DNA from: a virus
Lineage: Duplodnaviria; Caudoviricetes
DNA length: 64,000 nucleotides
Reading direction: 5' to 3' (one strand)
IMG/VR virus record: IMGVR_UViG_3300021431_000113
Location: 1-64,000 of that record
A program made the position numbers and the translations under genes. Below, in pieces: positions 1 to 61,132 of the stretch (within the stretch, counting starts at the first letter, position 1; the number at the start of each line of letters is the position of its first letter). The notes beneath the pieces were generated by a model that did not search any database, was not told where the DNA came from, and worked only from the letters and a program-made list of their open reading frames with translations.

Positions 1-7
1 TGATGAA

Positions 8-81
8 TTGGATAAGTGGGATTCGAACCCACATCCTTCTGCACTTATAGCAGCGCTTTCTCCTCATTAAGCTATTATCCG
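8..81 (-). tRNA. atypical tRNA-like gene, isotype undetermined (loop TATAAGT, nominal TAA)
   Basis: Acceptor CGGATAA/TTATCCA (C1:A72 mismatch), D stem GCTT/AAGC, T arm GTGGG-TTCGAAT-CCCAC; anticodon stem only 4 bp (CTGC/GCAG). Confidence 0.6.
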
Positions 82-208
82 TATATAAACTCGCCAGTTT
101 ATATATTTTTAGTATGCATACATTTTCTTTTTAGGACAGAAAAATTAATACCTGCTGTTCTTCTTTCTTTTACTTCGCAAGAACTCAGTTTCAAGTAACG
201 AAGGCGCG

Positions 209-283
209 CTGGCACGGTAGGATTCGAACCTACGGAAACTGGCAGATTAACAGTCTGTTCGCATACCACTTGCGGACGTGCCA
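209..283 (-). tRNA. tRNA-Asn(GTT)
   Basis: Acceptor TGGCACG/CGTGCCA, anticodon loop CTGTTAA, T arm GTAGG-TTCGAAT-CCTAC. Confidence 0.9.
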
Positions 284-617
284 AAATTAAAGAGGGGAAG
301 GAAGAGTTGCGGATAGGACGTCCGCCTCTTTCTACAAGGTCTTACATCTTCAGTAGATACTCATAGTTACAATCATTACTTTCACTACCTTATAGCCTAA
401 CTTCCACTGGAGTATTTCTTAACTCACTCTCTTATTTTATATAAATGAAACAGTTTCACAGCTTTTAGCAAGTCCAGTCCGATTTTATCTTGCTTTCCTG
501 TACACCTGGCACACTCTTTATTCCCCATTTGGAGCTAATCATTCCTCCTAGCGTGTTACTCTTAACAAGGTTTGCAACCCTTTGTTAAGTTTCTTTTCTG
601 TTTCATTTTCTATATAT

Positions 618-646
618 ATTATACTAAAATTTTTTAAAAATTGCAA
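618..646 (-). promoter_or_regulatory. sigmaA-type promoter inside the tRNA cluster
   Basis: Minus strand TTGCAA-N17-TATAAT. Confidence 0.75.
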
Positions 647-658
647 AAATTTTAGTAG

Positions 659-729
659 AACGGGTAAACGGATTTGAACCGTCACCAAATGCTTGGAGGG
701 CACTTATGCTACCATTACACCACACCCGC
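659..729 (-). tRNA. tRNA-Gly(TCC), C at position 33
   Basis: Acceptor GCGGGTG/TACCCGT, anticodon arm AGTGC-CCTCCAA-GCATT, T loop TTCAAAT. Confidence 0.88.
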
Positions 730-811
730 ATATAAAGCAGATTATTGCGAACTTGCCATCTGCCAGGGCGGCACCTTTATTTTATATAGCGAAGGTCATG
801 TATCTCCGCTA

Positions 812-881
812 AGTGCCGAGTTGGAGTTGAACCAACCTCACTGATTTTGCAGACCAGCCGCCTTCCGCAGACATTCGACAC
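812..881 (-). tRNA. tRNA-Cys(GCA)
   Basis: Acceptor GTGTCGA/TCGGCAC, anticodon loop CTGCAAA, T arm GTTGG-TTCAACT-CCAAC, U73. Confidence 0.85.
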
Positions 882-963
882 ATATTCCTACTCACCATAT
901 ATTGAATTCGTCCGGACTCGTCCAACCTTTTGGGAGGGCTATCATATGGCTTTTGGAAATAAG

Positions 964-1048
964 TCGGGATAGATGGACTCGAACCACCGATGTTTCTTAT
1001 GTCTGGGTTTACAGCCCAGTGCAATCGCCACTCTGCTACCATATCCCG
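964..1048 (-). tRNA. tRNA-Tyr(GTA)
   Basis: Acceptor CGGGATA/TATCCCG, anticodon arm CTGGG-CTGTAAA-CCCAG, long variable region, T loop TTCGAGT. Confidence 0.9.
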
Positions 1049-1054
1049 ATGTTG

Positions 1055-1128
1055 TGGAGCTAACGAGGATCGAACTCGTAACCTTCTGTGTGCAAAACAG
1101 ACGCTCTCCCAATTAGAGCTATAGCCCC
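1055..1128 (-). tRNA. tRNA-Ala(TGC)
   Basis: GGGGCTA/TAGCTCC with G3:U70, loop TTTGCAC, T loop TTCGATC. Confidence 0.93.
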
Positions 1129-1137
1129 ATAATAAAG

Positions 1138-1209
1138 TGGGAAGTATAGGAACTGCCCCTATACGCCCTGGGCTTCAACCAAGCGCTCTTCTAATTGAGC
1201 TAACTTCCC
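1138..1209 (-). tRNA. tRNA-Phe(GAA) with non-canonical T loop
   Basis: GGGAAGT/ACTTCCC, anticodon arm CTTGG-TTGAAGC-CCAGG, T arm ATAGG-GGCAGTT-CCTAT. Confidence 0.85.
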
Positions 1210-1220
1210 ATATAATACTT

Positions 1221-1381
1221 ATTCTTGGGTGGGGATTTACACCCCACATAAATACCAGTTCCCATATAGCTTTTACTACTATATCTCAATATTCTCGTCA
1301 AATATACGCCTATCTACGGCTCAGAACTTGTTTCCATATTTCAGGACTACACTATGCGTCTACTTATTCCGCCACCAAGAA
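1221..1381 (-). ncRNA. 161-nt tRNA-like RNA with large structured insert in place of the anticodon arm
   Basis: Acceptor TTCTTGG/CCAAGAA, D arm TGGCGGAATAAGTAGACGC, T arm GTGGGG-TGTAAAT-CCCCAC; about 105 nt between the D and T arms. Confidence 0.75.
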
Positions 1382-1384
1382 CAA

Positions 1385-1704
1385 TGGACCTGGCGAGAGT
1401 CGAACTCGCGTCTCAAAATACTATCTTACAATCCTTTTACGCAATAGGCTTTAGGGAGCCACCCAACATAAGGTAATAAGGTTTACCTACTCCACCAGGC
1501 GAAAGTGTGTCCGCCGCACTCAACTGTTTCAGTTTTCGATCCTCAAAGTTTACAGAAAACAGATTACTCTACACTTCTTTTGGAACCTAATAGGATTAGG
1601 CAGCCATTCTATATTCGTTTGCGTTTATTTTTAAAGGTGACTTAACGATGTCGGTCGTGCGAGATTATAAGCTTCATACCCTGATCGATACCCCTTACAA
1701 GCCC
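1385..1704 (-). ncRNA. ssrA: tmRNA, tag peptide ANEYRMAA*
   Basis: 5' GGGCTTG pairs with 3' CAGGTCC-A (G3:U70); T arm GCGAG-TTCGACT-CTCGC; resume context AAATAAAC-GCA, tag ORF 1622..1596 ends GCT GCC TAA. Confidence 0.93.
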
Positions 1705-1744
1705 TAATTTAATTATTATTATTTCTCTTTCATTTTCTATAATA

Positions 1745-1773
1745 ATTATAACAAAATTTTAATAAAAATGCAA
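1745..1773 (-). promoter_or_regulatory. sigmaA-type promoter upstream of tmRNA
   Basis: TTGCAT-N17-TATAAT with TG before -10. Confidence 0.75.
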
Positions 1774-1774
1774 G

Positions 1775-1858
1775 CGCAGTGTGAGGGAGTCGAACCCCCG
1801 CTCCGTTGCCGAAGGACGATTTTCAAGACCGCTTAGTGCGCCGACCACAATACACTGC
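1775..1858 (-). tRNA. tRNA-Ser(TGA), atypical D arm
   Basis: GCAGTGT/ACACTGC-G73, loop CTTGAAA, long variable arm, T loop TTCGACT. Confidence 0.82.
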
Positions 1859-1996
1859 AAATTATAATCATATTTCATTTATTCCTTCTATTCTGCCCTC
1901 CGAAGGACTGAGAGGTTGCTGAGCAACTAACTTTATACACATTACGACCTCACTCTCGGTCATTGGTCACCATCTCTGGCGAAATATGATTATGAA

Positions 1997-2082
1997 CGCG
2001 GAGAGGAAGATTCGAACTTCCGAAACGAGATTCGTTTAACGCCTTAGCAGGGCGCCGCTTTCAACCACTCAGCCATCTCCGC
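1997..2082 (-). tRNA. tRNA-Ser(GCT)
   Basis: GCGGAGA/TCTCCGC-G73, anticodon arm CGCCC-TGCTAA-GGCG region with loop CTGCTAA, long variable arm. Confidence 0.92.
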
Positions 2083-2221
2083 AGGTGTAAGGGTGTCACT
2101 AAGCAAAACTTCTCCCTGTTTTACCCCTTACTATTTACACCGACTGTCGCTATCAATGTAAACTAGGACATAAGTTATTCTCAAGTCAGGCTACGACATT
2201 AATACCTTTCTTGACGCTTGT

Positions 2222-2294
2222 AAGCACCGACGGGATTCGAACCCATGTTACCACCGTTAAAGGGCAGTGTCTTAGACCACTTGACTACGGTGCA
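2222..2294 (-). tRNA. tRNA with TTA (ochre) anticodon in a tRNA-Glu body
   Basis: GTCAAGTGGTCTAAGACACTGCC-CTTTAAC-GGTGGTAAC is a Glu-type body whose usual loop CTTTCAC reads CTTTAAC here. Confidence 0.88.
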
Positions 2295-2471
2295 TAAACT
2301 AGAATATTATCGCGAAATTATCTAGGAGATGATTAACCGATACCTCACAAACATATCTTTTTACTCAAAAGACCAGAGGGGTTCTTCGTTAACCCATAAC
2401 GGACTGCTCTTAGCTCACAAAGTTTAGCAGCCAAAACTCGGATACTTTCACAGCGTTTTCTTGCTGGTACG

Positions 2472-2542
2472 AGCTCCCGCCCAGACTCGAACTGGGATTG
2501 ATAGATTACAAATCTACTCGCCTACCATTAGCGGATAGGAGC
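2472..2542 (-). tRNA. tRNA-Thr(TGT)
   Basis: Anticodon arm GTAGA-TTTGTAA-TCTAT, T arm CCCAG-TTCGAGT-CTGGG. Confidence 0.88.
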
Positions 2543-2648
2543 ATGTGCGGGTACGTTTTAGGCTACCCTCCCGCTTTAATGCCACGTCGGATTTTCAATT
2601 AGGTCGGACGCGCGACCTTTTTTACTCATTTCTTTATCTTACATATAA

Positions 2649-18237: not shown

Positions 18238-18400
18238 AGTGCTTTACCTCTTTTCCTCTTCTTGTAATTAAATTATATCATAAACAAGAGTAAAATGCAA
18301 TACTAATTTTATTGTTTTTATGTTAAGATTCTGCGGCGGCCGGCGCGGTTAGAGGTCTTTAACGACCTCTTCCGCCTACCAAGGAAACCAACCAATTTTC

Positions 18401-22334: not shown

Positions 22335-22559
22335 CTACCCCTCCTCTTCATATGCGGTAACGATTTTGCCAAACAGAGTACATATCCTCTGCCACTCACT
22401 TTCATCATGAGCAATGAACTCATAATCTTCTTCCGTGGCGCAATCAGGCACCCCAACCGCAATCCAATCTTCCCACGCAACTTCATCTCCGATTGTATTA
22501 CATACATAGTCATTCATCTGCTTAAGGAGTTTTATTCTCTCGTCATAGATATTTGCCAT
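22335..22559 (-). CDS. hypothetical protein
   Basis: GGGG RBS, own promoter. Confidence 0.72.
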   Translation of the reverse strand: MANIYDERIKLLKQMNDYVCNTIGDEVAWEDWIAVGVPDCATEEDYEFIAHDESEWQRICTLFGKIVTAYEEEG

Positions 22560-23603: not shown

Positions 23604-23734
23604 AAGTGCTGAATTTCGGGATGACAGAATTTTAACATAAATAACAGAAATTTGCTATTGACAAACCTGACTCATGTGTGGTATAATATTGCGGCGCACT
23701 GACGAGGAGTGTGATTGTCAGCGCGCCGCCCAAA

Positions 23735-24071
23735 TAAAAAAGAGCAGAAATACTCTGCTCTTATTATACCATAAACGGTTGACTTTGTCAACCCTTATGT
23801 GGATTTTTTTGAGTGACTGCCAAGTCCAAACCTCTTTCCCGCTCCTCACGGTACTCATCACTCTGAGGGCTTTGTGCCTACTTATTTCAGTGCTACTGTT
23901 CTTCACAACTGCCCCATGTGGGTTACACGGCTGAAGGTGTTCCTCTTGTATTAACGGCTCACTCTTTAAAGGCTTTACACCTCAACTTGCGAGGATTTAT
24001 TACCTACCGACCTTTCTGCTTGGAGAGGCTTAATACGCCGTGGGTTTGGTGGGTTTTCCTTCCCTTACTGT
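23735..24071 (-). ncRNA. candidate ~335-nt structured ncRNA of unknown family
   Basis: Promoter 24078-24106, terminator 23735-23762, long-range helices CCAAACC/GGTTTGG, CACGGC/GCCGTG, GTATTAA/TTAATAC. Confidence 0.62.
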
Positions 24072-25333: not shown

Positions 25334-25440
25334 GTTTGTACAACAAAAAACACTTGACAAATTTGCCGACCTGTGATATAATGAAATCGCGGCAGGCTCG
25401 CGACAAGGACGCCCGCGAGCCTGCCGCCAACTAAAAAGGT

Positions 25441-25749
25441 CTAGCAGTAAGCTAGACCCATGTCACGCCATCTCAGAACGCTTATCTGATTGCATGCTCT
25501 GCCAATTTCCATCGCTTCGCGCTTTGTGTTAACTCTGTGGCTAAGGTCTATATAATAGACACCATCTGCAAACCAGATTCCGCAGTTTCCGCCATATGCT
25601 TTTATCATCTGCATAGCTTCGCGAATATCTGTAGTTTCTTTTCCCTCTGTTGCTACTTGCCAACCGGTTTTATATACTATAGGCTTGCCATTTTTAAGAG
25701 TAAGTCCACCATTGTTTGTTATCTTTTTAAGTGTTCTTATATTTATCAT
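25441..25749 (-). CDS. hypothetical protein
   Basis: GAGG RBS, own promoter. Confidence 0.75.
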   Translation of the reverse strand: MINIRTLKKITNNGGLTLKNGKPIVYKTGWQVATEGKETTDIREAMQMIKAYGGNCGIWFADGVYYIDLSHRVNTKREAMEIGRACNQISVLRWRDMGLAYC

Positions 25750-26138: not shown

Positions 26139-26269
26139 ATTTTTTATCATTTTTCTACTTGACAAATGCCGTTCTCATGTGGTATAATATTTCGACACTG
26201 AAGCGGAAACGACGCTCTAACCGGTAAAAAGCTTGCCTTGTGGTGATTCAAGGCAAGCTTTCCGCATTT

Positions 26270-26521: not shown

Positions 26522-26627
26522 TTTGTTTTCCTCTCTTTCCTTTTTCTTGTCTTTATTATAGCATCTAGAGAGTTAATTGTCAAGCACTTCTTAAAAAATT
26601 TTTTTATTTTTTTGTATGTAGTTAGCC

Positions 26628-26792
26628 TTAGTTAACTACATACATTTTATCATTCATGTTATCCTTTATTGTAACAACTCCGTCAGTAACCTTTGCCATA
26701 CCTTTAGCTACTTCCATAGCATCATTATAATCGTTATAACTTTCTACCTTAGTTCCCTCTGTTGTTCTTACTGTTACCATGTATCTTCTCAT
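26628..26792 (-). CDS. small hypothetical protein (54 aa, below cutoff)
   Basis: MRRYMVTVRTTEGTKVESYND...YVVN*; promoter upstream. Confidence 0.6.
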   Translation of the reverse strand: MRRYMVTVRTTEGTKVESYNDYNDAMEVAKGMAKVTDGVVTIKDNMNDKMYVVN

Positions 26793-26980
26793 CCTTGTAC
26801 ACCTTAGCCTTGCCGGTTTCCTTTCCTTTATCTTATGTATACATTATAGCATTTTTTGTCTAATTTGTCAATAGTTTTTTTATAATAAATTTTTGTTTTT
26901 TATATTAAATTTCTGTCTTTTGCAAAAAACAAAACTTTTGCTTTGCATCGCGAAAAACAAAAATTGTGCAAAAACGCAGA

Positions 26981-27130
26981 TTAGCAGTTAGGCATACTTA
27001 CCCTCAGTTAGACTTGCTTAACCCTGGTTAAACTACCTTACCTACAGCTAAGTATGCCTAACCCAAGTTAAGCTTCTCTAACTGTAGTTAACTGTGCTTA
27101 ACTGCTATTAGCAGTGACTAACAGCTATTA
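26981..27130. repeat. 15 x 10-bp phased degenerate array, (T/C)TA at every tenth base
   Basis: Fifteen consecutive decamers end in TTA or CTA; includes IR GTTAGGCATACTTA/TAAGTATGCCTAAC. Confidence 0.9.
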
Positions 27131-27619
27131 GCCAAACCGAACCGAAAAATCTGCAACCCTGTGCAGAACTAAATCCCGGCGCGCTGTGACCAACACCGCG
27201 CCGAGCAGCCATGTGAGTTGTTTCACATCATAAGTAAAACTTTTATCTAAATAAAAGAAAAGTTTTATATCAATTAATTTGATTCACAAAACTTTTCTTC
27301 TTTTATCAATTTACATTTGTTATTTGTATTATTATTTGATGTGTGTTTGATTGAAACAATCAAAACAAATCTATTATTCAATCAATTATGTGTTGCTCAT
27401 ATTTTGCTCCCCGTACAAAAGGCATTGCCCTCGTTCAAATAATCATCGAGGTCCGCAATGTACCTTTTAAAAATTTCTGGTTGACCTGACTGGGGGGTAG
27501 GGTTTTGGGATAAAAAATTTTTTAATTCACAAAAGTCGTATTGGCACGTCCATTCCCAGAGAAAATAAACTTAAAAACCGAATAACGAAAATTATATTTT
27601 CCCGACCTAACACGGAGTG

Positions 27620-28225
27620 CTAATAATATTTTTTCTCTAAATTTCCATCTATATGTTTTCTATCTTTCCCAAAATTAGCTTTTTCTAAATCTCCATCTAA
27701 AATAGTTCCTTTTATATACTCATGTAAATAAATTACTCTAATATCAAAATCTGTTCCCATAAACATATTCATAATAATATCTTTTACATCTTGCCAAGTA
27801 AAACCTGCAGCATCCCGTGGAGTACTAATTCTAGGTAAAGCAATTTTCATAATATTTTGTTCTTCTGCAATTTCTTTCATGTGCGCGAGTGCTAACTCTA
27901 CATTGCGGAGAGTCGGTAATTCATATTGCTTGTTTTTAACCACTAAATTAAAAATATGATTATTATTACTTAATATACAATAACCTTTTCCATTCCAAGT
28001 TAAAATATGATGTTGTTTTATGTCATCGCGGACTGAGTATCTTTTTTGAAAGAACTTACTTAGTCCCACGTCAAAGCGGCTGCTCGCGCCTATCCAATGC
28101 GCAAGAGCATAATCATTTTCATAATCAAATAAATTTCCTGGTGTTTCATTTATTTGACCTCCCGCAATCCTATGTTGTGGCTGTTCCTCTTGTTTTAATT
28201 GATTTTCTATATATTTACTATACAT
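27620..28225 (-). CDS. divergent macrodomain, TARG1/DarG-like
   Basis: GNLF, LAHWIGAS, FNLVVK, LPTL, IALPRI..RD..FTW..VKDII mirror GDLF/LAHCISAD/FNLVTK/IAMPRIGCGLDGLDW. Confidence 0.72.
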   Translation of the reverse strand: MYSKYIENQLKQEEQPQHRIAGGQINETPGNLFDYENDYALAHWIGASSRFDVGLSKFFQKRYSVRDDIKQHHILTWNGKGYCILSNNNHIFNLVVKNKQYELPTLRNVELALAHMKEIAEEQNIMKIALPRISTPRDAAGFTWQDVKDIIMNMFMGTDFDIRVIYLHEYIKGTILDGDLEKANFGKDRKHIDGNLEKKYY

Positions 28226-28300
28226 TTAAATGTACCTCTTTTATTTTCTTATGATAATTATATCAAAATTTTTTATTTTTGTCAAAACTGTTTAAAGCAG

Positions 28301-29499: not shown

Positions 29500-30753
29500 A
29501 TGGCAACAGCCACAAAGAAAAAATGTACTTGTTCACGCTGCAAAAAGACTATGTCTGATATAAAATTCTATACACATAAAGATGGTTCAAAAGATGATAT
29601 GTGTAAAGATTGTTTATGTGCTCATGTAAATAACTTTGAACCTGATACATTCTTATGGATATTAAAAAGAATGGATGTCCCATATATTCCTTCAGAATGG
29701 AATGTATTGCGGGACCGCAAGTATCAGGAGGACCCAAACAAGGGTACTGGCGGACCTGCGGTGATGGGTAAATATCTTGCTAAGATGAAATTAAAACAGT
29801 GGTATGATAAAGAAACTGGAAAACCTTATACTTGGGAAGATTCAGAAAGATTGCAGGCTGAATATAGTCAAGAACCAGAATTAACAGAAGAACAAAAGGC
29901 AGAAGAAGAAGCTCATGAACAAGAGATAAAAGATATGTATGAAAAAGGTGAGATTTCTGAAGCTGAATATAAAACTTTAACATCCACAGAATCTCAATTT
30001 AAAGATGCGGCGACCCTGTTCCCAGGAGCATCGGACATCAGTAATGCAGATGGAGGGTTCGACTTCGACTCTCAGTACATGTCTGAAGATGAATTACCAG
30101 ACCCTGCTGCAGGACTTACAACAGAAGATAAGATTTATCTTGCTATGAAATGGGGTAGGTTATATAAACCAAACGAGTGGGTTATACTTGAACAGAAATA
30201 TACAGAGATGATGAACTCATTTGATATTCAAGATGCGGATAGTAGAAATACACTTATTCTCTTGTGTAAAACTGATTTAAAAATGAATCAGGCTATTGAC
30301 TGCGGAGATGTTGATGGTTATCAGAAATTATCAAGAGTAAGTGATAATTTAAGAAAGTCTGCAAAATTTACCGCAGCACAAAATAAAGATAAGGATAATG
30401 AACAAATTGATTGTGTTGGTGTATTAGTTGCAGTATGTGAACGTGAAGGTGGATTTATTCCAAATACATTGGTTGATGTAAATGAAGATATGATTGATGT
30501 AAGTATAAAAGACACTCAAAAATACTTACATAATCTTGTAACTAAAGACTTAGGTTTTGGTCAGCAGATTGAGAATTACTTAAAGAAAATACAATTAGAG
30601 CATGATAATATTGAAGCTATGGAAAACATGGAAGAAGAAGAATTAACAGATGAAAATATAGCAGAATATTACGAAAGAATAGAAGAAGAAAAAATAGAAG
30701 ATTCTCAAATAACTCAAGAATCAAACGCTTATAATAGAAAGGATGAAGAATAA
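29500..30753 (+). CDS. Zn-finger protein, possible terminase small subunit
   Basis: CSRC...CKDC N-terminus; translationally coupled (TAATG) to terminase large subunit. Confidence 0.5.
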   Translation: MATATKKKCTCSRCKKTMSDIKFYTHKDGSKDDMCKDCLCAHVNNFEPDTFLWILKRMDVPYIPSEWNVLRDRKYQEDPNKGTGGPAVMGKYLAKMKLKQWYDKETGKPYTWEDSERLQAEYSQEPELTEEQKAEEEAHEQEIKDMYEKGEISEAEYKTLTSTESQFKDAATLFPGASDISNADGGFDFDSQYMSEDELPDPAAGLTTEDKIYLAMKWGRLYKPNEWVILEQKYTEMMNSFDIQDADSRNTLILLCKTDLKMNQAIDCGDVDGYQKLSRVSDNLRKSAKFTAAQNKDKDNEQIDCVGVLVAVCEREGGFIPNTLVDVNEDMIDVSIKDTQKYLHNLVTKDLGFGQQIENYLKKIQLEHDNIEAMENMEEEELTDENIAEYYERIEEEKIEDSQITQESNAYNRKDEE

Positions 30754-32498
30754 TGGCTTTAGCTGATTTAATGGAACTTTCTATTAATAAGTCTTATCAG
30801 AAAATAGGTATTTCTGATGAAAGAGTTAAAGCTTGCCTTCCTGAACTCAGGAGGGCTATTGCTTTTTATAGAATGTATCCAGATTTATATATTGACTTTT
30901 GTAATTCTTGCGCGAGTGAGAAACAGAAAGTGCTTAAATTGTATACTTATCAAAGGATATTCTTGCGTCAAGCAATGCGTTATCGACACGTGTATGCAGT
31001 ATTTCCACGTGCCTATTCTAAATCGTTTTTATCTGTCTTGGTTCTTATGTTAAGATGTATCTTTTATCCAGGATGCCACTTATTTGTTACTACTGGTGGT
31101 AAAGAACAAGCTACTGGAATAGTTAGAGAAAAAGCTGAAGAGCTTTGTAAACTTGTTCCAGGTCTTGCAAACGAAGTTAATTTTGACAGAGGTAAATCTA
31201 AATCTTCAAAAGAAGAATTTACTTTCTTATTTAAGAATGGTAGTATTCTTGATGTAATGGCATCTACACAACGTTCAAGAGGACGAAGAGCAACAGGTGG
31301 TCTTGTAGAAGAGGTTATTCTTGTTGATGGAACTATACTTAATGAAGTTATTATTCCTACTATGAACGTATCTAGATTGCTTCCTGATGGTAGTAGAAAT
31401 GATGATGAAATTATTAATAAGAGTCAAATATATGTTACTACCGCAGGATGGAAAAATACATTTGCTTATGAAAAACTTATGATGATATTACTTGAACAGA
31501 TTACTAAGAGCGAAAGTGCTTGCGTTATGGGTGGTACATGGCGCGTTCCGGTTGCAGAAGGATTGCTTGCTAAAAACTTCGTTCAACAATTGAAGTTAGA
31601 TGGAACTTATAACGATAGTTCATTTGGTCGAGAATATGAATCAGAATGGAGTGGGGATGCGGAAAATGCTTATTTCTCGTCAGAGATTTTTGACAAATAC
31701 CGTATCTTAAATCAGCCAGAATATGAATTCAGTGGCAGAAGTAGTAAATCTGCATATTATGTAATTGGCGTCGACGTTGGTCGTAAGGGGTGTTCAACTG
31801 AAGCAGTTGTTATTAAATGTACGCCGCAACCGCAAGGAAATTCATTGAAGTCTATTGTTAATATTTATTCATGGGAAGAAGAACACTTTGAACAACAAGC
31901 TATTAATTTAAAGAAATTATATTTTAAATATAAAGCAAGAACACTTGCTATTGATGCGAATGGTCTTGGTATTGGTTTAATTGATTATATGATAAAAGCA
32001 CAAATTGATCCAAAGACTGGAGAAACATTAGTTCCTTTCGGTGTAGATAATATAGATGAATATCCTGAATACAAGAAATATCGTACTCCTGAAACAGAGA
32101 AAGATGCTATGTATTTAATAAAAGCAAATGCGCCAATTAATACAGAAGCTCACTCTTATGTTCAAACACAATTATCAAGTGGTAAAGTTAAATTTTTAAT
32201 AGATGAAGTAACTGCAAAATTAAAGCTTATGGAAACAAAATTAGGTCAGGGTATGACACCTGAAAAGAGAGCTGAGTATTTAATGCCATTTACATTAACT
32301 ACTTCTTTAAGAGAACAGATGCTTAATCTTATTGAAGATAATGAGGGTGTTAATATTATTCTTAAGCAATCAAGTAAAACCACTCCTAAAGATAAATTCT
32401 CTGCTTTTGAATACGGTATGTTGTTTATTAAACGTGATGAAGAAAGACGTAAAAAGAGAAAAAATTTTAGCGTTTCTGACTTACTTCTTTTTAACTAA
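30753..32498 (+). CDS. terL: terminase large subunit
   Basis: Walker A-like PRAYSKS, Walker B-like LVEEV, RNaseH-like nuclease GVDVGR, IDANG, KDKFSA. Confidence 0.9.
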   Translation: MALADLMELSINKSYQKIGISDERVKACLPELRRAIAFYRMYPDLYIDFCNSCASEKQKVLKLYTYQRIFLRQAMRYRHVYAVFPRAYSKSFLSVLVLMLRCIFYPGCHLFVTTGGKEQATGIVREKAEELCKLVPGLANEVNFDRGKSKSSKEEFTFLFKNGSILDVMASTQRSRGRRATGGLVEEVILVDGTILNEVIIPTMNVSRLLPDGSRNDDEIINKSQIYVTTAGWKNTFAYEKLMMILLEQITKSESACVMGGTWRVPVAEGLLAKNFVQQLKLDGTYNDSSFGREYESEWSGDAENAYFSSEIFDKYRILNQPEYEFSGRSSKSAYYVIGVDVGRKGCSTEAVVIKCTPQPQGNSLKSIVNIYSWEEEHFEQQAINLKKLYFKYKARTLAIDANGLGIGLIDYMIKAQIDPKTGETLVPFGVDNIDEYPEYKKYRTPETEKDAMYLIKANAPINTEAHSYVQTQLSSGKVKFLIDEVTAKLKLMETKLGQGMTPEKRAEYLMPFTLTTSLREQMLNLIEDNEGVNIILKQSSKTTPKDKFSAFEYGMLFIKRDEERRKKRKNFSVSDLLLFN

Positions 32499-32550: not shown

Positions 32551-32934
32551 ATGAATCGGGAAAGGAAAAAATATGTCATGAGAGCTAGTAGAGGAGAAAT
32601 TACAATAGAAGAAATTTTAACTGAAGCTGGATTAGATTTTCAAGAAGAGTATAGCTTTCCAGATTTATTATCTAATACAGGTCGTCCTCTTAGATTTGAT
32701 TTTGCGGTCTTTGATGACGAAGGAGATATTGATTTCTTAATTGAGTATCAAGGAATTCAGCATTATAAGCCAAAAGAAAAATTTGGTGGTATGCAAGGGT
32801 TAAGAAAGCAACAATTTAATGATATGAAGAAACGTGAGTATTGTCGCAAGCATAAAATTAAATTAATAGCTATTCCTTATACAGATGAATTCTTACTTAG
32901 TTATGATTATATTATGAAGAAAGCTGGTTATTAA
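32551..32934 (+). CDS. PD-(D/E)xK-type small endonuclease-like protein
   Basis: LRFDFAVF...IEYQGIQH...DMKKREYC. Confidence 0.7.
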   Translation: MNRERKKYVMRASRGEITIEEILTEAGLDFQEEYSFPDLLSNTGRPLRFDFAVFDDEGDIDFLIEYQGIQHYKPKEKFGGMQGLRKQQFNDMKKREYCRKHKIKLIAIPYTDEFLLSYDYIMKKAGY

Positions 32935-60000: not shown

Positions 60001-60864
60001 GATGCTGGTAGAACTAAAAAATATGCTTTATATCATAAAAACTTTTATATTACAGATGACGGAGAAGTTGCTATTGGTTTAGATAAAAAAGCAAAAATAT
60101 ACACTAAAGAAGGTCGTATTGGTGATTGGGTTATAACCACACATGAATTAAGAGATATTAAACAACATATTGTATTAGACCCAGCAGATACTAATAATCC
60201 TGATAATGCAAGAGCATCTCAAATTAAACTTGGTCATAATCCATCAAGCAATACTTGGAATTTAAAATTAATAGGTGATGGTTCTATTGAAGGACCGGAT
60301 TGGAGTATAACTGCTGGCGGAGTAGCTACTTTTTCAAATTCAAATAATGAATTTACTTGTAAAGTAATACATATGGGTAGTTCAACCTTAACTGAGGGGA
60401 ATTGGGATTTACCTGCTGATTCAAGAATTAAATGGGGTAATCAAACTCTTAGTATTAATGCAAACGGATTTAATTTTAGCGGTTCTGCTTCATTTACTGG
60501 TCATGTTAATTTTGAAGATGATATAAATCTTAATAGCGGTAAAAAAATTACTGTTAGTAATACAGCAGTAGTGGCTGGTGATCATATATATTTTACAAGT
60601 GGCTATGGATTTTATGGTAATGGTAATGCGAAATTTGGAACTACTGAATTTGGAACTAATTCTATTACAAGTGTTGGAAATATTACATCTAGTGGAGAAG
60701 TATCTGCAAATGTAATAAGAGGAAACTCTATTTATATTGGAAATCAAAGTTTAACAGCTTATATACAATCTGTTGTTCAAAGCATGACATTTAGTTTAAG
60801 TGGAACTACTGGATATGAACAACAAGATGGTTCTCATCACTATCACAATGTTACAGTTTCATAA
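54049..60864 (+). CDS. large tail tip/fibre-like protein, 2271 aa
   Basis: After tape measure; Y/N/T-rich beta domains and Gly-rich C-terminal repeats (G.I.A.SG.IG). Confidence 0.65.
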   Translation: MTHIDNSQNMSVEQVKEHLTNLINKQAKKVASEGNYDRTILATIQYCSNAVLGQYKIKYQNGYYSAYALDTTVKYSNGAAVYVTVPGNDLSNRLFIQGLATNDSTQKTYLTNLEGDQQYVTTGPNIINSIIYDNGDNFGLSSYWDMTEGREVTYYNYDWINDPEQFQNNKITLLDIGQITHSIRNGDGFIRFGGDFKTNLPNERKLQGDYGIRLVLVFDKIDPITQEATEYTETYELNTFRMDGTPFEFNEYASRYEYFEIDKENFKRIQSISAFVTGFPQGIQPSDTYRDIFIKNISLYSALKMYDAVANDDYVVKVLTPKGTSFGLDDSISSLPLEALFTVRGNEVEPSQNVQYFWAKKNINVKSVGDPKYLHYFGAGWQCLNKSEITRTNKEEITEEDLKNYIIDSTDYPSGYVGVLHWLSSQKINIQKELCLGRQTTIKCCVVYENQIYFSREYTITNYNGYYLILNSTNGTEFFNGKGYTSIIAGVFKTEVVGSGDAATFKPNPEPYSISNNIVYKWEIVNNGVTINLPTTTSSILYKSQPLWHYDEELGGFQDNIKTTVNESKGYLNALANKTQINVTLLECCIERFNYYNTWINNYTGNTSAADYVNSVEKRNNIVNHWKAFLDDQFNVDFKNELGLYVLGPANVTAKYNGYTTEQLKYFYDNNIDPLEANPNPVGIDTITYNYSDQPFDENEQNTLYNFRVGDIIQQATIRVTALVKDGNSYESLETKEIYLNNNEGTDLRYNLEIVNGNNTFQYDAGGLAPKMTIRPLSYRLYSQDGSLILDSAADDSDIVITNTKPKWSFYRASSLITTKYSEDLTSEYLYDPDIPGKVSVLNRAKFDFNIAEEYNVNYKERSNIELTITYQGTRYNASTNFTFTKQGDLGTNGTNMVLDIQDPIYEQYRSDVLTDKMFSMMTDGFDSKISSSPNERHLKNTYLYATRVYNDDGEGNPQEALSFDEGTFCNLKFAHGVNENQEYTPDKPRHFNVVGSTTTTLYGYWYENGNQTLINGDNTSKWQLTYTGLQKVQSQHIGGRSPIYDLPSFGISPTQGSSTTLTLTPPGNFEEGVPIFYKPMDVIYSKNNIDYQWTANNVVQCSASRKAQEQIDPATGNPIIRRNHGYYQIPFFFYSYYENRNGVYVNVTPDDPNKPEGALDPARHFVITGGYDEVLYGADGLNPQYNTQQPFTLNIFDIDGNNITDTVFDSNNVTVTWNTSYGFTRQPVVIGSVPAYSSFTRGKNLFNTYCTYNGKKYKCIVPHTPDQYVAIRDEKTNEVIKEYNKNPIGNNDFDFITPYWEEVTNNYFKRTQKITPPPSYEACAVNSLFNSWVSVKLIYDTGEIKIEAAALLPINILCNMYGSDEINGWDGRKTVVDDGYIISNKVAAGIKDDSNVFTGITIGQKMITNGTTDKTEVGLFGYGRYANSNVDGRTGYGQTIFLDAKTGLAAFGPRGSTQIILNPKIPAENTIEESWSRLAGWYFSSNYLYKPLWADDNYLSSTDDSGNSDYYNTNPPDADGTVIPGSIGFYVPSSKKAGQLTKDTVFMWASAAGVTSSSFDDDGKLTVLQDLVRSIKTLMQSEGFPLVYHTKVESIQIIPIVLTNSTISNYTMLASVYESSTPVITALNEYKTSWLDMIDAIQEDEEAHDIYETIVGQISSINDLFNAQHFPLVTRDGVVVRPIVDDGITIENYQDLLKWYVNSNEPRVTAYSDMIENLAISLQNYERNYYQLVHYMYRTLSDYPILMAQKLQALKTAIETTGIRTKSISTWNIDNPYIFIYNADKVTIDNFEEISLYYIRPAYSAGEVPREKLNILNDKFGDYLELHNEYEEWKASFEGQGAAISYTDSNSKKMDANFYVTYGGKMKCNNAEVAGKITARSGAIGEGTRGTLQIATYHYDSETQRNQYYLLYNPVFQVKGSDEGTATEPSVFIDGTIRAKSGQIGKTGNVDGKANGTLFIEYAWYPWNLPSDNQGWNKLYLNEDAGRTKKYALYHKNFYITDDGEVAIGLDKKAKIYTKEGRIGDWVITTHELRDIKQHIVLDPADTNNPDNARASQIKLGHNPSSNTWNLKLIGDGSIEGPDWSITAGGVATFSNSNNEFTCKVIHMGSSTLTEGNWDLPADSRIKWGNQTLSINANGFNFSGSASFTGHVNFEDDINLNSGKKITVSNTAVVAGDHIYFTSGYGFYGNGNAKFGTTEFGTNSITSVGNITSSGEVSANVIRGNSIYIGNQSLTAYIQSVVQSMTFSLSGTTGYEQQDGSHHYHNVTVS

Positions 60865-60889
60865 AATAAAAAAAAAGGAGATAAAAGGA

Positions 60890-61132
60890 ATGGAAGAAAG
60901 AGATGTTAATTTAGTCATTGAAGAAGTTAAAACACAGGTAATAAATACTATTAATCAGTCTGGATTACCTATTAGTGTAGTTTATTACATTATGAAAGAT
61001 GTAATGAATGGACTTGATACTACTTATAATGATTATATTAAGCAAGCATATAATAGGGAACAGCAGCAAATGAATAAACCTGCTCCCGAAGAAGAAATGA
61101 CAGAAATAGAACCTTCTATTATTGAGGACTAA
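60890..61132 (+). CDS. small helical hypothetical protein
   Basis: Start reset to MEERDVN by AAGG RBS. Confidence 0.7.
   Translation: MEERDVNLVIEEVKTQVINTINQSGLPISVVYYIMKDVMNGLDTTYNDYIKQAYNREQQQMNKPAPEEEMTEIEPSIIED

Follow-up and report, generated by a model that had tools for sequence, protein, structure and literature searches.

Background

The tox gene on corynephage beta is under the control of DtxR, a regulator of the bacterial host. Tandem repeats of 10 or 20 bp, on which dimers align side by side to form a superhelical protein-DNA filament, are known from parC/ParR of pSK41 and parC of R1; both centromeres lie beside a parR-parM operon, and segregation depends on them. Host Spo0A boxes control promoters of phages phi29 and Nf (PMC2731898), and in synthetic and eukaryotic decoy arrays, tandem sites titrate a transcription factor and alter the expression of its targets (PMC3322331, PMC7826281).

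The iron-box consensus for DtxR and IdeR is TTAGGTTAGSCTAACCTAA (PMC7762939). Each IdeR subunit occupies a single CCTAA repeat, and repeats 1 and 3 of TTAGGTTAGSCTAACCTAA together accommodate one dimer (PMC8464063), so that TTAG-N6-CTAA corresponds exactly to the one-dimer half of the iron box; a single-dimer half site is bound at ~78 nM (PMC8464063). SloR of Streptococcus mutans is a manganese-sensing member of the DtxR family with three adjacent AATTAA-N6-TTAATT sites, 4 bp apart, and its cooperativity on adjacent sites runs through the C-terminal domain of the protein (PMC12096823). Our search of the literature yielded synthetic and eukaryotic decoys as well as single host-regulator sites on phages, and no natural phage array of metalloregulator operators.

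The array and its surroundings

The window considered here is the whole 64,000-nt stretch of phage DNA that was analysed. Direct reading of positions 26981-27130 shows that all 15 decamers have a (T/C)TA ending and that the next base is a purine in 13 of them. A scan of the entire 64 kb for TA steps at fixed periods returned a single 15-step run at period 10, beginning at 26989; the runner-up at this period had 5 steps, and periods 7-14 otherwise gave runs of 6 steps or fewer. The 10-bp phasing of TA steps is real and far beyond chance. At phases 7-9 of the decamer, WW dinucleotides were counted 11, 15 and 9 times, and the count of SS dinucleotides was 0.

The repeat period of the array is 20 bp, not 10. 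TA phase and unit scoring delimit eight unstranded units at 26987-27142, each an inverted pair GTTAR-N6-YTAAC that consists of a 16-bp palindrome and is followed by four variable bases, arranged head-to-tail with starts at 26987, 27007 and onward to 27127. The 10-bp TA phase arises because the centres of the half-sites alternate between 11 and 9 bp apart. All eight units have the six-base spacer between their half-sites, which read GTTAG/CTAAC or one-off variants (GTTAA, ATTAG, TTAAC) and keep the TTA core in 14 of 16 instances; in three units TTAG is replaced by TTAA. Scored against GTTAG/CTAAC, every unit matches at 7-9 of the 10 fixed positions and none is perfect, a degree of imperfection that may signify either low affinity or an array in decay. 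Since the palindromes succeed one another, the whole stretch is also an imperfect inverted repeat with 62-nt arms, and its strong single-strand fold (z = -7.3) is regarded as a by-product of the tandem palindromes. An isolated unstranded unit that was detected by motif scan at 26621-26636 (GTTAGCCTTAGTTAAC, 9/10 match) lies in the hairpin after the 54-aa gene mentioned below and may be there by chance.

The inverted TTAG/CTAA-type half-sites of the array, with six bases between them, have the arrangement of repeats 1 and 3 in the DtxR/IdeR iron box (PMC8464063). In the canonical box, however, two dimers interleave with an offset of 5 bp and lie on opposite faces of the DNA, whereas the phage dimer sites recur every 20 bp, 8 to 30 times, and are promoterless. 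The SloR elements of S. mutans share the TTAA-N6-TTAA geometry and the location of neighbouring dimer sites within a few bp of each other (PMC12096823), and by analogy such TTAA-type sites would also fit the TTAA variants of the window array. They differ in that they comprise three 6-6-6 sites with a 22-bp period that overlap the -10/-35 boxes of a host operon, whereas the phage arrangement has at least eight sites, repeated every 20 bp and distant from promoters. The sites of AdcR (TTAAC-N2-GTTAA) and clostridial Rex (GTTAA-N4-TTAAC) were considered as the site type and set aside on account of their mismatched spacing.

The array is bordered on its right by the end of one leftward transcript and on its left by the beginning of the next. 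A 201-aa gene (27620-28225, minus strand) has a perfect promoter at 28285, and its leftward transcript would end at a hairpin and T-run with the features of an intrinsic terminator (27167-27150, minus strand) that abuts the array. Sequence reading also identified an unstranded GC-rich hairpin, GGCGCG...CGCGCC, at 27178-27205; a similar hairpin comes after the arrays in two related loci (L003 and L031) and a solitary one at window 23698-23733. To the left, a repeat search revealed an unstranded AT-rich spacer (26876-26975) with 20-bp (AAATTTCTG-type) and 28-bp repeats, the AAATTTCTGTC motif of which recurs upstream of leftward promoters in L003. The spacer separates the array from a perfect minus-strand sigma-70 promoter, TTGACA-17-TATAAT with TG (12/12 in the promoter scan, 26871-26843), that drives a 54-aa early gene. 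This promoter points away from the array, and its -35 box is 110 bp distant; as the nearest promoter it leaves the array without any overlap of a -35/-10 region, unlike DtxR-type operators. No plus-strand promoter of at least 9/12 was found to read into the window array. For leftward transcription, the array thus forms an untranscribed pocket, since a terminator precedes it and the next leftward promoter follows it. A survey for LexA, Rex, CIRCE, CtsR, cre, CodY, Fur, PerR, Zur, DnaA, Spo0A, parS and AdcR sites near the window array detected no cluster; there were isolated CodY, PerR and DnaA matches with one or two mismatches and one exact 7-mer for Spo0A.

Several of these features had been noticed in a first-pass annotation of the same DNA. 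The (T/C)TA endings, the YTAR core in 13 of 15 decamers and the exact 10-bp phase were borne out by direct reading and by the 64-kb scan, and the G/C bases were described correctly as out of phase, as can be seen from the absence of SS at the WW phases 7-9. The view that a helically phased array serves a protein on one face of the helix is likewise supported as a reading at the DNA level. A likeness to the DNA-wrapping sequence Widom 601 extends to the TA and WW steps every 10 bp with SS out of phase, but the half-site sequence explains that pattern fully. As for location, the array, which that annotation had placed at the early/late boundary, lies 110 bp upstream of a leftward promoter; the true switch of strand (28225-28279) is found 1.1 kb further to the right. 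The minimum of the cumulative GC skew is located at the strand switch as well, where it coincides with the change of gene orientation.

Distribution among related phages

TerL (30753-32498), the portal protein and neighbouring gene products were assigned by PHROGs. The closest cultured phages are large siphoviruses of Bacillota with TerL identities of 32-46% (Geobacillus E3, Enterococcus phages, Brevibacillus Sundance and large Bacillus phages); the TerL homologue of the large Bacillus phages is annotated 'YonF' in Sundance. The full record of the phage under study (G000) is a 76-kb fragment that is 57% complete. We compared 47 related viral loci, which to judge by their sample numbers originate mostly from ruminant-gut metagenomes.

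Four relatives carry an array in the corresponding place, flanked by homologues of the 102-aa gene and the 201-aa gene. The main array of L003 (TerL 92% identical) has 14 units by motif score and 19 TA steps in phase, and this locus contains three further modules, for a total of four; the array of L031 comprises 7-8 nearly perfect units and that of L038 comprises 4. The 10-bp period is kept in the relatives that bear an array, and their arrays are not alignable with one another outside the motif. No array was found at this position in L005/L006 and L007. Two complete genomes, G005 (130 kb, with a TerL that is 90% identical) and G008 (134 kb), are free of arrays throughout, even when two mismatches are allowed. 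Because these two complete relatives have none, the array is an accessory element, and it varies in copy number.

Just to the left of the main array in L003, in AT-rich non-coding DNA, are two perfect host-type parS sites (TGTTTCACGTGAAACA; L003:4965-4980 and L003:5058-5073). Such sites are present neither in the window nor in the other 48 loci.

The same site in other viral contigs and in bacteria

The exact double unit GTTAG-N6-CTAAC-N4-GTTAG-N6-CTAAC matches 53 viral loci. Viral arrays consist of 3 to 30 units each, often with several arrays per contig and in some contigs with five or more modules, and the phage records that bear them are all fragments (15-63% complete). In a non-redundant set of 37 arrays with 369 units, the consensus is A-GTTAG-T....A-CTAAC-T, the TTA core is kept at 89-96%, and 307 of 332 steps from unit to unit (92%) measure 20 bp. 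When the intergenic region and a 30-unit array were compared by blastn with cultured phages, the only match was to an unannotated faecal contig.

Other host-type sites are found near some of these arrays. Sequence within 300 bp of an array is ~80-fold richer in perfect LexA boxes of the Bacillota (CGAAC-N4-GTTCG; 13 in 18.9 kb versus 10 in 1172 kb, counts that include some redundant copies of the same phages). These boxes occur in L016, L050, L061, L070, L080, L093, L100 and L102, with three in succession at L070 192-248, and the palindrome ATCAA-N5-TTGAT is likewise enriched near arrays (11 versus 2). The enrichment of LexA boxes, together with the parS pair of L003, suggests that array-bearing non-coding stretches collect sites for host DNA-binding proteins.

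In bacteria, the exact double unit matches at least 120 loci across several phyla, as compared to a chance expectation of ~0.5 matches (a rough estimate based on 20 fixed bases and the stated size of the collection). The matches listed are from Oscillospiraceae, Lachnospiraceae, Christensenellales, Gastranaerophilales, Treponema, Actinomycetota, Succinivibrionaceae and others. The bacterial double unit sits between a -35 box (TTGACA) and a start codon. Among 80 loci analysed from 109 that were scanned, the flanking genes include those for FeoA (12), FeoB (11), iron-type ABC binding proteins (7) and DtxR-family repressors (4), and all four of these repressors carry both PF01325 and PF02742. Bacterial copies of the array motif are therefore found, as is the DtxR/IdeR iron box, in promoters of iron-uptake and dtxR-family genes. 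Judged by its sequence, the phage unit is the bacterial operator at feoAB, iron ABC transporters and dtxR-family genes, where the match is to operators of bacteria at large and may not equal the operator of the phage's own host.

The bacterial sites and the phage arrays differ in number and spacing. Exactly two units are present in 113 of the 120 bacterial loci listed, and the window array has four or more times the site number of such a native operator pair. Four listed loci with at least five units have phage-family genes or only small ORFs in their vicinity and are probably phage contigs inside bins. In one Oscillospiraceae-centred order, 32 of 301 genomes carry a perfect pair whose units are 0-14 bp apart (0 of 301 for the reversed control). 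The gaps of these native pairs are mostly 9-14 bp around the -10 box, often enclosing a TATAAT-like sequence, and a 4-bp gap is rare. All of the Clostridia genomes with the operator that were examined (5 of 5) encode a PF01325 protein, 126-145 aa in length.

A possible operator sink

We lean towards the interpretation that the array is a multiplied operator for an iron- or manganese-dependent repressor of the host's DtxR family and that it draws this repressor off host promoters. Each 20-bp unit would supply one dimer site, TTAG-N6-CTAA (the TTAA variant in three units), and the strict 20-bp register of eight units would permit about eight metal-loaded dimers to bind abreast, on roughly one face of the DNA. 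By analogy with SloR, the binding of dimers along the array would probably be cooperative. The array is copied with every phage genome, and in this way repressor might be titrated from host promoters and the uptake of ferrous iron and other metals derepressed during infection. A sink effect appears to us the most likely consequence of binding because the array overlaps no promoter, exceeds the two-site operators of bacteria and multiplies with the phage DNA. The binding of a host protein, its cooperativity and the titration effect are all what we infer from the composition and arrangement of the sites.

The likely binder would be a host metalloregulator, rather than a terminase, an adaptor of the ParR/TubR type or a phage histone-like protein, because the unit is identical to the bacterial operator. 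A six-frame search of G000 and four other array-bearing fragment records (G001-G004) detected no PF01325 (DtxR) domain, and the same domain search in the array-less G005 gave only a sub-threshold winged-helix match. In a phyletic screen, all G000 ORFs were compared with three array-bearing relatives and two array-less complete relatives; the candidates that were linked to the array consisted of spurious ORFs that overlap one another and two proteins, acidic and without annotation (22335-22559, minus strand, and 60800-61132, plus strand), neither of which looks DNA-binding. A DtxR-family repressor of the host would be the most economical candidate, although a binder encoded by the phage itself retains some probability, as all array-bearing records are fragments.

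The activating enzyme of anaerobic ribonucleotide reductase is an iron-sulphur protein. This phage carries a gene for the anaerobic reductase NrdD outside the window (G000:68320-70005; PF13597, E = 1.5e-94), which can be considered a motive for metal import and no more.

On a more tentative level, and with rather less confidence than we place in the sink as such, we can envisage that large phages of gut Bacillota use 8-30 host DtxR-type operators, often beside LexA boxes, as a protein-free device for host takeover that raises iron and manganese import for phage replication. The Spo0A boxes and parS sites of phi29 and Nf, as well as the tox operator of corynephage beta, resemble the array in being phage-borne operators of host regulators that couple the phage to host physiology. 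These sites, however, are single or few and overlap phage promoters or origins, whereas the phage array is dense and tandem and looks built for capacity rather than for switching. Host regulator sites on phage DNA have so far been single switches, and a dense, exactly phased array of a metalloregulator's operator, found again in dozens of uncultured phages, would, if our interpretation is true, be a different use, in which DNA acts as a sponge or as a platform for multiple dimers. It has tandem binding sites in common with the decoy arrays that have been engineered or described in eukaryotes and would, if confirmed, be a natural example of a transcription-factor decoy array, one that ties phage infection to host metal homeostasis in gut and rumen. 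The array might also serve as a ready cooperative substrate for the DtxR-family proteins of Clostridia, the operators of which are little studied.

Alternative interpretations

A host DtxR-family repressor might bind the array and yet serve another purpose there, namely as a sensor of metal status or as a roadblock or insulator for phage transcription. Under replete metal, the row of dimers would then block read-through between early transcription units or modulate a nearby early promoter. The window array fills precisely the gap that separates a leftward terminator from the leftward promoter after it, as would suit such a device, although no promoter overlaps it. Of ~40 phage arrays, 9 start 16-46 nt downstream of an 11-12/12 promoter and one is flanked by convergent promoters, but the density of promoters in early regions brings 9 of 40 near to chance (a rough estimate). 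The LexA boxes by arrays suggest a hub that reads host physiology, and DtxR-controlled tox is a precedent for control of this kind. The Spo0A boxes on phi29 and Nf are another (PMC2731898). Nevertheless, 8-30 sites are far beyond the needs of a switch, and several units of promoter, array and terminator are geneless (as in L077). We consider such a role less likely than a sink, but a serious rival to it.

It is improbable, in our estimation, that the binder is encoded by the phage and that the array functions in the handling of phage DNA, as a centromere, an iteron origin, a packaging site or a substrate for histone-like wrapping. The occurrence of phased palindromes beside AT-rich DNA where the cumulative GC skew has its minimum, the retention of the array's position in four relatives and the two perfect parS sites that adjoin the L003 array are all consistent with such a function; GC skew in this region, however, tracks gene orientation. 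The first-pass annotation had proposed packaging initiation, a segregation centromere or a site for a histone-like phage protein, and none of these fits the distribution and identity of the unit. Packaging initiation is contradicted by the absence of the array from the complete genomes of G005, with its 90% identical TerL, and G008, and by the multiple modules elsewhere (four in L003 and up to five or more in other contigs); a replication origin with iterons or a pac site was rejected on the same grounds, as not every member of the lineage would possess one. With regard to a centromere, Tubulin (PF00091) and ParM (PF06406) were not found in G000 and four related records, in a search for which the ParM control was silent, and the neighbouring genes do not belong to these families; in contrast to the centromeres of pSK41 and R1, the phage array has no partition genes that we could find and is dispensable in relatives. 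A histone-like protein loses its appeal in view of the identity of the unit with a bacterial metalloregulator operator, and no histone-like binder was identified. The half-sites are uniform in distant phages and across bacterial phyla, which argues against co-evolution with a phage protein. There is a more general caution in this result, in that a helically phased repeat in a phage genome is not necessarily an origin, a centromere or a pac site.

Transcription of the array into an RNA of tandem hairpins (GUUAG-N6-CUAAC stems) that sequesters an RNA-binding protein in the manner of CsrB/RsmZ might be imagined from the ORF-less promoter-array-terminator units (L077, L003 3629-3900, L070), the good fold of the window stretch (z = -7.3) and the many orphan RNA genes of this phage, but it is very improbable, because a leftward terminator precedes the window array and no promoter of at least 9/12 reads into it, constant stems with variable loops are what a dimeric DNA site shows whereas protein-binding RNA hairpins show the reverse, the bacterial motif is in promoter DNA and partly upstream of +1, and a good fold follows automatically from tandem palindromes. 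A structured RNA was also rejected as the main reading after Rfam searches (the window at the gathering threshold and 26700-27700 by E-value) returned no credible family.

Additional features of the window

Lone GTTAR-N6-YTAAC units (9/10) at 14264-14279 and 18348-18363 are contained within GC-rich hairpins upstream of leftward promoters. They are similar to short modules of L003 (1617-1740, 2080-2180), and their number is compatible with chance.

A conserved non-coding block at 27489-27597, CTGGGGGGTAGGG...CCCAGAGAAAAT...CGAATAACGAA, is common to L003 (5994-6092), L031 (4171-4271), L023 and L036, with two copies in L038; motifs that resemble it in L005 and L007 were recognized by eye and are not blastn matches. 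The block may represent a promoter specific to the phage, or a small RNA. At 23620-23760, a perfect plus-strand promoter follows two ACAGAAATTT motifs and has only a hairpin and a terminator downstream of it; the sequence of this GC-rich hairpin, GGCGCGCACTGAC...GTCAGCGCGCC, is identical to one that follows the main array of L003. Two other plus-strand promoters (12/12), at 25354-25460 and 26159-26261, oppose the leftward genes and would yield short, ORF-less transcripts with hairpin terminators, which may be antisense or decoy RNAs.

The first 2600 nt of the window (1-2600) contain a cluster of 12 tRNA genes, one of them with the anticodon UUA, which would read UAA stop codons, together with a tmRNA gene whose tag is ANEYRMAA; the ORFs of the window look normal under the standard code. 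A homing-endonuclease-like gene is located between terL and the portal gene (32551-32934), and L027, L028, L030-L034, L037, L040 and L041 are listed with this observation on the homing-endonuclease-like gene and terL. The TerL match of several relatives extends over 2.0-2.6 kb rather than 1.7 kb, a difference that points to an intron or intein inserted within terL.
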